A stretch of DNA of 52,433 nt. Source: Escherichia virus TH23. The notes beneath the pieces were generated by a model, which did not search any database, was not told where the DNA came from, and was given only the letters and a program-made list of their open reading frames with translations. The translations under genes and the position numbers were made by a program. Shown here piece after piece: positions 41,494 to 52,433 of this stretch (position 1 is the first letter of the stretch; every line of letters starts with the position of its first letter). Location: the sequence record MT446397.1. One strand, 5' to 3'.

Positions 41494-41510
41494 TTCAATT
41501 CCAACTAATG
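41494..41510 (-). promoter_or_regulatory. Conserved intergenic motif copy (candidate phage promoter)
   Basis: Minus strand CATTAGTTGGAATTGAA, at the upstream edge of the 40.9-41.7 kb island. Confidence 0.3.
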
Positions 41511-41540
41511 TTTCAGAATTATTCCAATATTCCAAACAAA

Positions 41541-41609: not shown

Positions 41610-41634
41610 GCCTTTCTTCCCTAAGAGGTCAGAA

Positions 41635-41650
41635 TCAAATCCCACTAATG
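41635..41650 (-). promoter_or_regulatory. Conserved intergenic motif copy (candidate phage promoter)
   Basis: Minus strand CATTAGTGGGATTTGA; shares a 14-nt identity (actaatgtttcaga) with the 41494 copy. Confidence 0.3.
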
Positions 41651-41720
41651 TTTCAGACTAAAGCCGAAGGCCAATGCGAGTACAAAACCCGCTTGGCACT
41701 TCGAAGAAACCCGCCTGGAA

Positions 41721-41924
41721 CTATAGTGTTTTCCAGTCTGAATCAAACATTACAGTTGGTCGAGTAAAGATTGTTGAAGAATCGGTGCTCAAGAAGGTAT
41801 GATTCCCATACCGTTTAACTTCCTGATAAGCAAATCCCTCAATCCACTCTCCGCTGGTGGCTTTAATCTTCGTTGGCCCCAGAATACGGTAATAAGTATT
41901 TCTTGGCTGGTGATGAACAATCAT
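41721..41924 (-). CDS. Hypothetical protein
   Basis: Internal start of the 41721..42026 ORF after the upstream gene stop. Confidence 0.25.
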   Translation of the reverse strand: MIVHHQPRNTYYRILGPTKIKATSGEWIEGFAYQEVKRYGNHTFLSTDSSTIFTRPTVMFDSDWKTL

Positions 41925-41937
41925 CTCAGCTTCGATT

Positions 41938-42558
41938 TCAGATGTTTTCAAGCTGCGCACGAAACAATACCCCATTTGAGAAGATGAAGTCTGAACCATA
42001 ATCGTGAACAAACTTCTCCCAATCAATGTAGTTCAGTAAATTATCAGGAATGCCATACGAATCGCTTTCCTGTCGGAAATACTGCTCCATAGAGTCAAAT
42101 TCTCCGATATACGCATCAAGCAAATTAACTTCTTGATAGAAGATATCAATTTCATCACTGTCGTATGCAGCCATGATAATTTCTTCACTAACTTCTGTCA
42201 GCAAATTGTTATAATGGTCGTAGCGAGTGCGACTAAAGACACCTTTAATAAAGCAGAGCTTGGTTACGCTGTCATCATCTGATTCGATAATGTCATACGT
42301 GCCGGTTTCAGGGAATTCGATTCCGTATTCTTCATGCAGATACTCCTGCATATTGAAGTCATAGAGCCGCCATGCCAGACCATCAATCCAAACATCTTCA
42401 AATTCAGAGTTGTTTTCGCCTGTGTAGAAACGAACCAATAAGGTTTCATCTCTACGCCAGGACTTAAGTTGTTCCACTGCTTTAGTAATGTTATCGTTTT
42501 GCATTAAGTTTCTCCCACATACCTTGAAGTTCCATGTTAAGGATTTTGAGCTGTTCAA
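41938..42558 (-). CDS. Acidic protein, ArdA-like antirestriction candidate
   Basis: 206 aa, strongly acidic; C-terminal NYIDWEKFVHDYGSDFIFSNGVLF resembles the ArdA region as recalled; true start may be the internal MQNDNITK. Confidence 0.35.
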   Translation of the reverse strand: MNSSKSLTWNFKVCGRNLMQNDNITKAVEQLKSWRRDETLLVRFYTGENNSEFEDVWIDGLAWRLYDFNMQEYLHEEYGIEFPETGTYDIIESDDDSVTKLCFIKGVFSRTRYDHYNNLLTEVSEEIIMAAYDSDEIDIFYQEVNLLDAYIGEFDSMEQYFRQESDSYGIPDNLLNYIDWEKFVHDYGSDFIFSNGVLFRAQLENI

Positions 42559-42781
42559 TTCGCCCTTTCCCGCCCTTTACTAGTATGTCCAGGATGGCGG
42601 TCTTCTCTTCATATGTTACTAGATAACAGCATCTGCCAACCTCAATTTCGTGTCTCAGACTACGGGAATCTTGCACATGATTTGACAAATGTTGGTGGAG
42701 TTCTGCCTCTGCACGAGACGTACGCTCCTGCATACGCTCTAATTCTTTCGGTATTTCCTGATATTCCATCGGATACTCCAT
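42491..42781 (-). CDS. Hypothetical coiled-coil protein
   Basis: 96-aa ORF. Confidence 0.3.
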   Translation of the reverse strand: MEYPMEYQEIPKELERMQERTSRAEAELHQHLSNHVQDSRSLRHEIEVGRCCYLVTYEEKTAILDILVKGGKGRIEQLKILNMELQGMWEKLNAKR

Positions 42782-42789
42782 TGATGAAG

Positions 42790-43185
42790 TTATGCTGGAA
42801 GTTCGAAGTGCGGTGCGTCGAGGAATTTAGCCCATTTCACTGGCTTAGTGAATGAACGTTCCCATGTTCCACCCCAACGAATAACAATTCCAAGCTCCTC
42901 TGCGGCTTTGAACATGTGTTCAGCTACAATTTGGAATCGTTCAAGGTCATTCCAGTCAATTGGGTATGGTGCAATGTCCAAAGCGTTGCCTGACATGTGT
43001 CGGCTAATAGAAACTTTGGTTGCACCCTGCTTTAAAAGCTCTTGTTGACGTTCATAAGAGCGTAAACCTTCCAAAACAGTTACATCAAAAGGCATGGTTT
43101 CACATGCCCGTTTGAAAACTGCAACTAATGAAGGATTTACTCCCTTAAGTCGGTCTAAAGAACGTTGGCCGAGCTTAACATTCAT
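42790..43185 (-). CDS. Peptidase M15-family L-alanyl-D-glutamate endopeptidase (T5 Lys-like endolysin)
   Basis: 131 aa; LEGLRSYERQ, SRHMSGNALDIAP (H-x6-D) and DAPHFE zinc-ligand motifs. Confidence 0.65.
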   Translation of the reverse strand: MNVKLGQRSLDRLKGVNPSLVAVFKRACETMPFDVTVLEGLRSYERQQELLKQGATKVSISRHMSGNALDIAPYPIDWNDLERFQIVAEHMFKAAEELGIVIRWGGTWERSFTKPVKWAKFLDAPHFELPA

Positions 43186-45554: not shown

Positions 45555-45572
45555 TCTCACATCCAACTAATG
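45555..45572 (-). promoter_or_regulatory. Conserved intergenic motif copy (candidate phage promoter)
   Basis: Minus strand CATTAGTTGGATGTGAGA, about 80 nt upstream of the SSB-tail gene start. Confidence 0.35.
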
Positions 45573-45731
45573 TTGAATTAATCAGGAACACTCAATGAAT
45601 GCTCCTTGTTAATTTAACGCGCCAGTTTATATTCCTGCTTGTAATAGCAGCAGGTTGGCAAAGCCTATAACAATCGTAATTATAACAACGCTAATAGTAA
45701 GTGTCAGTATTAGGTATTTAATATTCAATCC

Positions 45732-48797: not shown

Positions 48798-48814
48798 TTC
48801 ACATACAACTAATG
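48798..48814 (-). promoter_or_regulatory. Conserved intergenic motif copy (candidate phage promoter)
   Basis: Minus strand CATTAGTTGTATGTGAA. Confidence 0.3.
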
Positions 48815-48859
48815 ATAAATGAACATGCTTAATTGCAACTAACTCATCTGCCAAATAGA

Positions 48860-49715
48860 CGAATTTTGTCACAATTAAACATGCGTCATTAATTACAGGT
48901 TTACTCCCACCTTGAATGTATTTGGCACATTAAGATTGGAGCAAGCAGGTACGGAAAACCGACCATGTACAGCATAATAAAACTAATTAAATAAAGGGTT
49001 TTATCCCAATATTGTCACAATATTTACATGCGATGATAAAGCCTTCGCTTGGCTGGAAGCCAGTATTCATGCGGGTTGCAAGAATATTGGGTCAATACTG
49101 ATACAGCTATTACATGTGAAATTGGCACAAATACTGTTACAAAATTAACATGCCGGATTGGTAGACAATTGTATCTTCGAGGTGATTAGTCCTCTAACAA
49201 TTCTGCCACATTCTAACATGCCAATTTGTAGCAATATTTACATGCCATACTGTGACGCAATTGTCACAATATTTGTTGCTCAAAATCGGGGCGGGCTACG
49301 GGATTAGTTTCGCGGCTTTGCTCCGACTCTTCTCTTCTTTCGAATTAAGATAGAAAGAAAGAAGCATGTCCAAAAGTTCCAGTCTTGCCAAAGTTATCTC
49401 CCGGCTTGTGGGTGGGCCTTTATAATAGGAGATGGAGCAATATTGTCGCAATTGAACATGCTTTAGTTGAAGAACAGTTTCGAATGATAATCCTACTTCA
49501 CACATGGTTGCTGGAACTTTGTCTGGCCAAAGACAGGGAGTTCAATGATTGCCACATCATTACAACGCTGTGTGTTTAGTTGACATGCTGAAATGTTTCT
49601 AGAATGATTTCAACATGACATGCGGAATACTTCTCCGTATTCTGTTACTTCACATCCAACTAATGTCGAATATTGAAACAATATTACATGCAGCAATATT
49701 GCTTGAATATTGGGA
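48860..49715. repeat. Cluster of at least nine degenerate copies of an AT-rich 20-mer (consensus TTGTCACAATATTTACATGC), mostly one orientation, one palindromic unit TGTGACgcaattGTCACA
   Basis: Copies near 48866, 49011, 49122, 49201, 49225, 49249-49280, 49441, 49550 and 49676; related copies near 199-270 and 435-470. Confidence 0.6.
49649..49665 (-). promoter_or_regulatory. Conserved intergenic motif copy (candidate phage promoter)
   Basis: Minus strand CATTAGTTGGATGTGAA, about 75 nt downstream of the RNA polymerase terminator. Confidence 0.35.
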
Positions 49716-49782: not shown

Positions 49783-51897
49783 TTATTGACAGAAGTAGTA
49801 AGCGTGTTCGCTCATCAGAAGCTCTTCGGTTACGATGTTCTCATGATACATCTGAATGCCACCAAGTTGCTTAGACAGATTCTCGAATTGATTGTTGGTT
49901 ACGAAGATTTCAACATATGCTGCACGAATAACTTCCATCATTTTAGGAGCATCAGCTAAGCAGCAACGGAAACAATCATGGATTGAAGTAAAGCCACGAA
50001 GACCAGCTTCTTTAGCTTTGACTGCAACAGTACGAGCAACCAATGCGTCAATACCTTGAATGTAGTTAACAACGAAGGTACGTTTGAATTCCTCTTTAGT
50101 TGGATTGGACTCACGAATGGTCCAAGGCTTATTCTCCTGAATCTGACCAAAGATGACACGAGTTTGAGAGTCAACACGAATGCTGAATGCATCACAAACA
50201 TCACGAGATGGGAAGCAAGGTTTCATTACAACTTGACCATCAGTGTGCTTATATGTGATGTACTCTTTGTTGAGTTCAACACAACGAGCAAATGCAGCAT
50301 CAGCAGCTTTCTCGATGAACATGTTAATCTTAGCACCCAATGCGTTATGGATTGCTTCAACACAAAGTTCAGCAAATGCTTCGGCTTTCTCCATAGGAAT
50401 CTGGAGAGCTTCTGTCATGTATGCGGTGAAATCAGAAGAACCAGTCAATGCAGCTTTACCACCACCATATTGGATAGCCATGTATGGAGTTTTGATAAAC
50501 TTACGACCAGCTTTCGGATTCAAGAATTCATCCATAATTTCAGCGGATGGTTTCATTGAAGAACGGTCAAGCAACTTCAACAGTTCACGAAGAGATAACT
50601 GGTATGGGTCAGATGCTTTAGTCTCAGAATCAACCAGACCTGTAGCACGAGCCATTTCCATGTTACCAGCAATGAATGCCAAGTATTGGGTACCAGAACA
50701 TTTAGCATCTAAGCCAAAGCCTACACGAGAATCACACTCACCTGTAGTCTCAAACTTGAACCAATCCAGAGCCAGACGAACATAAGTGAATGGCTTAGAA
50801 GGACGCTCACCTTTAGGCATGTTCAGCATACGAGCCAAAGAACCAGCAGGATTCTGTGCAACATAAGTTAAACGTTTTGCAGAAGTCCAGTCTCCACCAG
50901 CAATATCTTCCAGCTCAAGCATGAACATGTTGTATGCCAGAGTTGTTGAGCCATCATCATTAAACTTGCTCACAGTGTTCTCAACATTGTGGGAATACAG
51001 GCAACGAGCAAAGTCGGATGATTGTGGGTTAGGACCAGCACATGCTACATGATACAAACGACCACGGTTATCAGCAAAGTAGTCAGAGAACAGAGTGTCC
51101 TGCCCAACCATTGCTACAGCATTGTTCCAAACATGGAGTTCAGTCTGGATTGCTTCTGGCATCTGTAAGCCACCAAAGGTACGTTGTTCTAACATGGAAG
51201 AGATAACCTTAACCATTGTTGCATCAACGTGATATTCAGTATCTTGCAGGAATTCGATTGCAGCTTTCAGAGTCTTGGATGGCTTAACTTTGCCACCTTT
51301 AACGAAAGGCTTGCGACGAGATTCAGTTGTTACACGCTCAGTGAATGGAACTGAGGTATCTTTGGTTGTAACCAGCTCAACCCATGCATCAGTCATCTGG
51401 AACGATTTGTCCTCGTTCATGGTGATGAAACCGAAGTGCTTAGCTAAACCAATGAGGTTGATAGCTGGGTCAACATAGTGCATTGCTTTCAGGTCGTTGT
51501 TATAACGGTTGGCATCAGCAATAGAAGCAGAAGCCAGCTCGACCATTGCAATGGCTGGGACAACATCATCACGAGTGAATGACGTCATCATCTTGAAGAT
51601 TGCAAGAGCAGCAATAGCACAGGTCTGAGGCTGCATGTAATTCTGTTTCTCTTTGGCACGGTATACCAGAGCCGTGATAGCAGGGACAACGGATTTGATA
51701 GTTTGAGTTGAGATAGTTGTCATTTTGCGAGTCTCCAAGTTAGTTTCGGTTTTAGTTTCGGATTGTGTAGCAGCAGTGATTTCGTCAACCATTTGGTTGC
51801 AACGGTCCATCGTATCAAGCACGTCTTTCCAACCGTGGCCTTCTTCTTTTAAGCGAGCGCCATCAGCAGCCAGTGCGCGATATTCTTCGTTAGTCAT
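49783..51897 (-). CDS. Single-subunit T7-like DNA-dependent RNA polymerase (small, 704 aa)
   Basis: Motif A FGLDAKCSGTQYLAF (T7 FDGSCSGIQHF), motif B RKFIKTPYMAIQYGGG (T7 RSVTKRSVMTLAYGS), motif C FTSIHDCF...ADAPKM (T7 ALIHDSF...ADAANL); GGAG Shine-Dalgarno. Confidence 0.85.
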   Translation of the reverse strand: MTNEEYRALAADGARLKEEGHGWKDVLDTMDRCNQMVDEITAATQSETKTETNLETRKMTTISTQTIKSVVPAITALVYRAKEKQNYMQPQTCAIAALAIFKMMTSFTRDDVVPAIAMVELASASIADANRYNNDLKAMHYVDPAINLIGLAKHFGFITMNEDKSFQMTDAWVELVTTKDTSVPFTERVTTESRRKPFVKGGKVKPSKTLKAAIEFLQDTEYHVDATMVKVISSMLEQRTFGGLQMPEAIQTELHVWNNAVAMVGQDTLFSDYFADNRGRLYHVACAGPNPQSSDFARCLYSHNVENTVSKFNDDGSTTLAYNMFMLELEDIAGGDWTSAKRLTYVAQNPAGSLARMLNMPKGERPSKPFTYVRLALDWFKFETTGECDSRVGFGLDAKCSGTQYLAFIAGNMEMARATGLVDSETKASDPYQLSLRELLKLLDRSSMKPSAEIMDEFLNPKAGRKFIKTPYMAIQYGGGKAALTGSSDFTAYMTEALQIPMEKAEAFAELCVEAIHNALGAKINMFIEKAADAAFARCVELNKEYITYKHTDGQVVMKPCFPSRDVCDAFSIRVDSQTRVIFGQIQENKPWTIRESNPTKEEFKRTFVVNYIQGIDALVARTVAVKAKEAGLRGFTSIHDCFRCCLADAPKMMEVIRAAYVEIFVTNNQFENLSKQLGGIQMYHENIVTEELLMSEHAYYFCQ

Positions 51898-51959: not shown

Positions 51960-51977
51960 ATCACAACCAACTAATGG
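51960..51977 (-). promoter_or_regulatory. Conserved intergenic motif copy (candidate promoter), upstream of the RNA polymerase gene
   Basis: Minus strand CCATTAGTTGGTTGTGAT, about 70 nt upstream of the polymerase ATG. Confidence 0.3.
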
Positions 51978-51999
51978 TAAGGCTAGCTCGTTACAACAG

Positions 52000-52433
52000 C
52001 GTGCTCTGATTGCCTTTGACCTTGACCCACTACCTAACTTGGTGTTGATTGAAAGCCGATAGGCTATAGGAAAAAGTTGGGGTAGGGACCGTATTTAAGT
52101 CCGATAGGACGTTGGGCTTCCCCTCCTCGGAGATAAAATTTTAAAAATAATAATGACACAACTTCCCCCCCCCCGCCACCTCAAAAATAAAATAATATCG
52201 CCACAATTCTAGTCTCATTAATATTGAAACAATTCGAGTCTCATTAATTCCGTAGCAATATTTAAATTAAAAAAAAAATTATATAAAATTTTTATAACAT
52301 AGTCGGGCTTCTGTTCGAACAAATTTCGGCTAGATACAGCTGACCGATTGTGAACGAGTCTATGTCCAGATACAGTTGACCGATCATTTACCATTTGGTT
52401 TGAACTTTACGCATTCCTAATATTACTTTAAAT
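52000..52433. repeat. Direct terminal repeat, right copy
   Basis: Matches 1..433 with one extra C in the poly-C run. Confidence 0.85.

Follow-up and report, generated by a model that had tools for sequence, protein, structure and literature searches.

The T7 protein Ocr (gp0.3) is an acidic, dimeric DNA mimic whose gene is the first to enter the cell and is transcribed by the host RNA polymerase. Mimicry of about 42 bp of DNA by an elongated homodimer, with inhibition of type I restriction and modification, is what characterises ArdA. ArdA, the second described system with which the present locus is to be compared, occurs on plasmids (PF07275) and in Tn916 (Orf18; PDB 2W82; complexes 7BTO and 7BTR), and is made up of three small domains in a row (McMahon et al., PMC2731889). 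Its dimer interface holds the "antirestriction motif" (residues 126-140), with L127, L134, Y137 and I138, of which the pair Y137-I138 is essential; hydrogen bonds are made to D139 and D146, acidic residues cross the dimer interface, and the VF motif, I160-F161, is essential as well (PMC2731889). The C-terminal domain of ArdA standing alone (sArdC) has been reported to be sufficient for antirestriction, that is, for relief of type I restriction (PMC12548430). Closest of all are phiEcoM-GJ1 gp22 and its orthologues, found in myoviruses that possess a T7-like single-subunit RNA polymerase (ICTV) and are under study for the biocontrol of pathogenic E. coli. An antirestriction label is already public for gp22 and for the orthologues in PHROG 14321, one of which is noted as an "ArdA domain-containing protein"; since these orthologues had been annotated in this way, the finding described below is sound, but recovers anew a divergent protein from a family already recognised.

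The window, by which we mean the whole stretch of 52,433 nucleotides that was analysed, is a complete phiEcoM-GJ1-like genome (Chaseviridae, Cleopatravirinae, Carltongylesvirus). Positions 1-433 are repeated at 52000-52433, and the window is therefore read as the whole genome, in reversed orientation relative to the phiEcoM-GJ1 record; all of its long ORFs lie on the minus strand. The 3-kb stretch around the gene of interest is 100% identical to that of Escherichia virus TH28 and TH33, and 88-92% identical to that of phiEcoM-GJ1-like phages of E. coli and Yersinia. The two terminal copies, about 433 bp long and in direct orientation, differ by one 1-nt indel close to position 174, and represent either terminal redundancy or overlapping ends of the assembly; for Chaseviridae, ICTV gives a terminal repeat length of about 3 kb. 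The features on which the following paragraphs draw are these:

41938-42504, minus strand: ArdA-like coding sequence, 188 aa plus stop; pI 4.06, net charge -28
42510-42516, minus strand: Shine-Dalgarno sequence GGGAGAA, read directly from the sequence, with a 5-nt spacer to ATG 42504
42491-42781, minus strand: upstream ORF of 92-96 aa, probably beginning with M5 at 42769 and running on for 14 nt into the ArdA-like gene
41721-41975, minus strand: downstream gp23-like ORF of 84 aa (PHROG 2652), overlapping the 3' end of the ArdA-like gene
42790-43185, minus strand: endolysin gene, adjoining the ArdA-like region
49783-51897, minus strand: RNA polymerase gene, at the leading, right-hand end of the genome

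The original prediction placed the gene at 41938-42558. An ORF of that extent does exist on the minus strand, but it is only the longest mechanical reading, from TTG 42558, and the gene itself occupies 41938-42504. The true start is almost certainly ATG 42504, because it is preceded at the 5-nt spacing by GGGAGAA, because all 47 near-full-length homologues begin at the corresponding position (MQNDNI or an equivalent), and because the ST32 orthologue has been annotated with the identical ribosome-binding site and start. The additional 54 nt (18 codons) between TTG 42558 and ATG 42504 fall inside the upstream ORF. The product is as strongly acidic as had been claimed, with 41 D+E against 13 K+R, and has the lowest pI among the 95 minus-strand ORFs of at least 60 aa.

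A C-terminal segment resembling ArdA had been named in the prediction, and this resemblance is not due to chance. Pfam PF07275 (ArdA) is the sole credible Pfam family match of the protein, aligning residues 94-172 with profile positions 63-143 at E 4.9e-4; the score of 21.2 bits lies below the gathering threshold of 27 bits. PHROG 14321, "anti-restriction protein", covers residues 1-183 with profile positions 1-182 of 183 (E 7.2e-45). Among the 19 close homologues that form a chasevirus-only profile (A1), 17 match Pfam ArdA at E <= 0.01, and an exhaustive HMMER search with this profile, through 1.84 billion representatives, retrieved 73 proteins; in an alignment of the window protein with 59 of the profile hits (A2, 60 sequences), 52 match Pfam ArdA at E <= 0.001, with a lowest value of 1.9e-39. 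Two relatives linked to the A1 profile at E 1e-38 and 6e-31 (P0050 and P0053) exceed the Pfam threshold, with 32.5 and 36.2 bits, respectively, and a third protein that passes it (P0073) is 48% identical to the window protein over 69 aa in BLASTP, at residues 117-183. Identity to the plasmid ArdA used in experiments is only 28%, over 57 aa.

Profile-profile comparison of A1 with a canonical ArdA alignment (A3; 23 sequences including Tn916 Orf18) gave 99.2% probability and E 2.7e-19 in hhalign over residues 85-184, which correspond to ArdA domains 2 and 3; with 19 intermediate relatives added, residues 37-181 align to residues 21-161 of 2W82. At the level of sequence, these comparisons show residues ~37-181 to be homologous to ArdA. 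The N-terminal region alone scores E 0.22 and 0.073 against ArdA in hhalign, values that are not significant, so that the assignment to ArdA is one that rests on domains 2-3 and not on the whole protein. The reported sufficiency of sArdC (PMC12548430) makes the weakness of the N-terminal evidence less worrying.

Neither phmmer of the protein nor hmmsearch of the A1 profile against PDB sequences returned ArdA or 2W82, and hhalign of A1 against the single 2W82 sequence yielded only a 26-residue match at 8% probability. The top matches in the PDB sequence searches, subtilisin and PriL, had E > 0.03 and were set aside as noise. As for Ocr, the other half of the proposed profile check, the similarity stood for ArdA only: no Ocr family was matched at E <= 1 in the Pfam scan, and no Ocr chain appeared in the PDB sequence searches or among the Foldseek matches listed. 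PADLOC gave no match for the ArdA-like protein, as is expected of an anti-defence gene, and NCBIfam is uninformative here because even the validated plasmid ArdA control had no match in it.

Structure models add to the sequence comparison and divide the protein as follows:

42274-42447, minus strand: residues 20-77, N-terminal beta-beta-alpha-beta region, from the AlphaFold2 secondary structure
41941-42252, minus strand: residues 85-188, corresponding to the helical domain 2 and the dimerisation domain 3 of ArdA, from hhalign, AlphaFold2 and Foldseek
41962-42042, minus strand: residues 155-181, NLLNYIDWEKFVHDYGSDFIFSNGVLF, counterpart of the antirestriction (dimer-interface) motif and VF motif, from hhalign to Tn916 ArdA

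The AlphaFold2 model of the full-length protein (pLDDT 84.8, pTM 0.76) shows, in order, a helix at residues 2-15; two strands, short helices and a further strand (22-75); a helical middle part; and a C-terminal domain of helices and strands. In this model, residues 20-77 are likely to be the counterpart of ArdA domain 1, a three-stranded sheet with a short helix. When the full-length model was compared with the PDB by Foldseek, nothing credible was retrieved, and 2W82 was absent among the 50 matches listed; against BFVD, the matches were phage proteins labelled antirestriction or ArdA-like, the best two of which, both chasevirus proteins, reached TM 0.61-0.71 and the more distant ones TM 0.37-0.44. 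A model of residues 85-188 alone (pLDDT 86.3) found 2W82_A as its top PDB match (probability 0.97, TM 0.62, rmsd 3.9 A over 109 columns, with an E of only 0.063), and its remaining PDB matches had TM <= 0.31 and probability <= 0.07. Thus, on the models, domains 2-3 appear to share the fold of Tn916 ArdA, the only credible match in the PDB. The extra N-terminal elements, together with the geometry between domains in a very elongated protein, may account for the failure of the full-length model to find 2W82.

These family and fold comparisons also bear on a different name that some orthologues carry. The product is called "tail fiber protein" in the record of MLP1 (L002, 1382-1930) and in those of PYps3T, PYps4T, PYps16T and PYps23T, in both GenBank and RefSeq. 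That the gene encodes a tail fibre protein is a reading to which we give practically no credence: what speaks for it are GenBank product names only, and against these stand the lack of a match to any fibre-like family or fold, the position of the gene in a group of small pre-replication genes, well away from the genes for morphogenesis, and the name antirestriction protein given to the orthologue in many other annotated records. The reading is without any support and effectively refuted, and the label on the orthologues is almost certainly a misannotation.

In the register of the hhalign alignment, the dimer-interface and VF motifs of ArdA are conserved. L156, Y159, I160, D161 and D168 of the window protein are identical to ArdA L134, Y137, I138, D139 and D146, and L180-F181 occupies the place of the VF motif I160-F161, with F161 kept and I160 replaced by L180. 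Among the chasevirus homologues, no variation is seen at Y159 and D161, and almost none at L156, D168 and F181. ArdA L127 is not kept, the aligned residue being S149. The acidic residues D109, D111, D112, D115, E122, E123 and E129 of ArdA align with E135, D137, S138, Q141, S147, D148 and G151, so that only three of the seven interface positions are acidic in the window protein; E140, E146 and D154 are acidic neighbours. The charge as a whole is very close to that of ArdA (net charge -28 and pI 4.06 for all 188 aa; residues 2-161 of 2W82 have -31 and 4.05). Acidic residues occupy 25 positions in 90% or more of the family members, and the net charge stays between -21 and -29 even among alleles whose residues 85-160 show only 38-49% identity.

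With the profile-profile comparison, the relatives that pass the Pfam threshold, the domain-level structure match, the conserved motifs and the ArdA-like charge, the "ArdA-like" reading of the original prediction has held up. Compared with Tn916 ArdA, the window protein appears to have the same fold in domains 2-3, and has identical residues at the five aligned interface positions named above, a conservatively kept VF motif and a similar pI (about 4 for ArdA) and net charge (about -30 for ArdA); it differs in being ~20 aa longer, in having an extra N-terminal helix (2-15), and in being encoded by a virulent myovirus instead of a conjugative element, and its activity is a predicted one. With sArdC and sArdN (PMC12548430), it has in common the C-terminal domain of ArdA, where the window protein is conserved best; these, unlike the full-length window protein with its three regions, are single-domain proteins of about one-third of the ArdA length.

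On the strength of homology, the domain-level fold match, the motifs, the charge and conservation across the phage family, we consider that the product of the gene at 41938-42504 belongs to the ArdA superfamily as a divergent protein of a phage lineage, acting as an ArdA-type DNA mimic against type I restriction-modification (R-M) enzymes, with a probability of roughly 65%. By analogy with ArdA, two copies of the protein would be joined by their C-terminal domains into an elongated and highly acidic homodimer, which would be expected to obstruct the groove in which type I R-M enzymes receive DNA. Dimerisation, target, protection in vivo and timing of expression are what we infer for this protein. 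Our search of the literature found no published experimental test of any chasevirus homologue and no work linking Chaseviridae with ArdA or EcoKI experiments; the "phage ArdA" control of Silas et al. is a plasmid-type ArdA (WP_000129958.1) and not a chasevirus protein.

The same set of data can be used to judge whether the protein might be the degenerate remnant of an ArdA, or an acidic protein that serves outside defence, for example as a chaperone or scaffold, the ArdA label then being a product of annotation inertia. The Pfam score under the threshold, the conservation of acidic interface residues at only three of seven positions, and a function predicted from sequence and model would all be compatible with such an explanation. 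We nevertheless hold it to be very unlikely, as the reading frame is uninterrupted, 19 homologues agree at 43 residues without exception, the structural-core residues of ArdA are kept, and the net charge has been maintained although over 50% of the sequence in residues 85-160 has been replaced. The gene is, moreover, present in every Escherichia and Yersinia chasevirus record: tblastn detects it in 63 phage records, among them every one of the 37 Escherichia and 8 Yersinia records in which the chasevirus RNA polymerase is also detected.

If the ArdA-type reading is adopted, the placement of the gene among its neighbours deserves consideration. The order endolysin, small ORF, ArdA-like gene and overlapping gp23-like gene is conserved in three genera, and the overlap of the gp23-like ORF with the 3' end of the ArdA-like gene is always kept in Carltongylesvirus, Faunusvirus and Loessnervirus. 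The gp23-like protein carries an invariant RPxxFDSDW motif. The upstream ORF of 92-96 aa is present in MLP1, PYps16N, ST32, Faunus and SSEM1 and absent from phiEcoM-GJ1; it has no PHROG or PADLOC match, and in Pfam just two hits far below threshold. For neither of the two small flanking ORFs was a function obtained from Pfam, PHROG or PADLOC. Translational coupling of the ArdA-like gene to both of them is predicted from this arrangement.

A 20-nt motif (consensus AAACATTAGTTGGATGTGAA) occurs in eight copies in the window, all on the minus strand:

51960-51979, minus strand: copy of the 20-nt motif, motif match
49649-49668, minus strand: copy of the 20-nt motif, motif match
48798-48817, minus strand: copy of the 20-nt motif, motif match
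45556-45575, minus strand: putative phage RNA polymerase promoter motif CAACATTAGTTGGATGTGAG, the nearest upstream of the ArdA-like gene; 20/20 matches to "putative phage promoter 3" of phiEcoM-GJ1
41634-41653, minus strand: next putative promoter motif, at the downstream end of the presumed unit; 20/20 matches to "putative phage promoter 4" of phiEcoM-GJ1
41494-41513, minus strand: copy of the 20-nt motif, motif match
39869-39888, minus strand: copy of the 20-nt motif, motif match
39537-39556, minus strand: copy of the 20-nt motif, motif match

Five of the eight copies agree at 20 of 20 positions with "putative phage promoters" annotated in phiEcoM-GJ1; according to ICTV, chasevirus promoters are not yet identified, and the copies are thus motif matches only. 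With the copy at 45556-45575 on one side and that at 41634-41653 on the other, the ArdA-like gene is presumed to share one unit with the SSB and endolysin genes and several small ORFs, a unit that would probably be transcribed by the phage RNA polymerase. The claim that the gene sits in the early region is correct insofar as it lies between the RNA polymerase and the replication genes; it is, however, ~9.9 kb from the leading end, behind the third putative promoter and beside the endolysin gene. Its position is accordingly a pre-replication one and not immediate-early, the timing being deduced from position.

This position bears on the comparison with Ocr. The presumed likeness between the two is that of an acidic dimeric DNA mimic from a lytic phage with a T7-like RNA polymerase; the searches described above revealed no similarity of sequence or fold. 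The T7 gene is first-in, whereas the window gene, ~9.9 kb in and behind a putative phage promoter as well as the RNA polymerase gene, is therefore placed unlike ocr. Type I sites precede it within the leading 10 kb, which, like the placement, speaks against the preferred reading.

A position unsuited to immediate-early expression might instead indicate that the protein is an ArdA-fold DNA mimic whose main target is another or a broader one among the DNA-binding factors of the host (a BREX methyltransferase or a type III enzyme, for instance, or else nucleoid proteins or regulators), or that it acts together with the two coupled ORFs. An N-terminal third that is not demonstrably ArdA-like and carries an extra helix would fit this possibility, as would the location of the gene in a conserved, overlapping module with two ORFs for which no function is annotated; three published sources also describe the inhibition of BREX by Ocr and the alteration of host gene expression by ArdA (PMC11317158, PMC13300388, PMC10746416). 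On the other hand, all characterised ArdA proteins inhibit type I R-M (PMC2731889, PMC10149784), the dimer-interface and VF motifs are conserved in the window protein, and its sequence points to no specific alternative target. We regard a different main target as unlikely, albeit the most serious of the alternatives, and retain the ArdA-type mimic directed against type I R-M as the preferred reading.

The ArdA-like gene of the window phage differs in a further respect from phiEcoM-GJ1 gp22 and its orthologues. They share PHROG 14321, the place after the endolysin gene, the overlapping gp23-like gene, length and charge; the window phage possesses the upstream ORF of 92-96 aa that phiEcoM-GJ1 is without, and the window protein is only 56-69% identical to the orthologues overall and 38-49% identical in residues 85-160. 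This low identity in residues 85-160 is due to the window phage having a different recombinant allele, one that it has in common with TH33 (the TH28 locus is 100% identical in DNA) and with two metagenome clusters, and from which the phiEcoM-GJ1 allele differs. The allele is defined by the following segment:

41725-42330, minus strand: divergent recombination patch of ~600 bp, comprising approximately codons 60-188 of the ArdA-like gene and the gp23-like gene

Within the patch, nucleotide identity to MLP1, PYps16N and GJ1 falls to 40-75%, against 90-100% in the flanks. At the protein level, residues 1-20 are 50-100% and residues 21-84 are 72-92% identical to the other Carltongylesvirus proteins, and residues 85-160 only 38-49%, the exception being the two rare metagenome clusters with 92-95%. 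A metagenome contig of this kind (L006, which carries P0002) is 85-98% identical in the patch, and its gp23-like protein shares 82 of 84 residues with that of the window, whereas its N-terminal part and upstream ORF differ (50-61% identity). The occurrence of the same patch against a different upstream background in this contig, together with the divergent patch inside conserved flanks, indicates that the ArdA-like gene was rebuilt by recombination within the coding sequence and that domains 2-3 and the gp23-like gene were swapped as a unit. The window allele has 16 acidic positions in residues 85-160, and 10 of them recur in the phiEcoM-GJ1 allele.

What the recombinant C-terminal cassette adds to earlier knowledge is small and mildly new. 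Such an allele swap fits the view of anti-defence genes as recombination hot spots and opens no new question. Host "anti-antirestriction" sensors that fire on Ocr or ArdA include PARIS, Ronin and EcoR22I-type cell death. One might imagine that the ~600-bp patch is an exchangeable module passed among chaseviruses, which alters the systems that are blocked or evades sensors of the PARIS, Ronin and EcoR22I types, with the gp23-like protein as a co-factor of the mimic; we consider this a quite doubtful speculation.

If the protein is active as proposed, it would be an ArdA-type DNA mimic belonging to a virulent myovirus rather than to a plasmid or transposon, and it would help to explain how phiEcoM-GJ1-like phages cope with type I restriction. 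The practical value of the analysis is modest and lies in the corrected start codon, in showing the "tail fiber protein" labels to be wrong, and in narrowing the ArdA basis to domains 2-3.

Sites for type I enzymes are present in the genome at roughly chance frequency and without depletion, with 4 for EcoKI, 5 for EcoBI, 6 for EcoAI and 18 for EcoR124I. In the leading 10 kb, where avoidance of type I sites might be predicted from a T7-like stepwise entry, none was seen (20 sites observed and 21 expected). Certain other sites are rare: GATC occurs three times (382, 39082 and 52382), against ~167 expected, and two of these are the same site in the terminal repeat; CTGCAG is missing, with ~22 expected; and CTAG is found at 0.48 of expectation. 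The pattern would be compatible with passive avoidance of some type II sites combined with an active inhibitor for type I enzymes.

A last observation concerns the RNA polymerase ORF, which encodes 704 aa when counted from its first ATG. In tblastn, the match to this protein starts at residue 1 in several related records and only at residue 53-68 in many others. Because the matches begin there, the RNA polymerase start, annotated or true, may lie further downstream in the latter phages.
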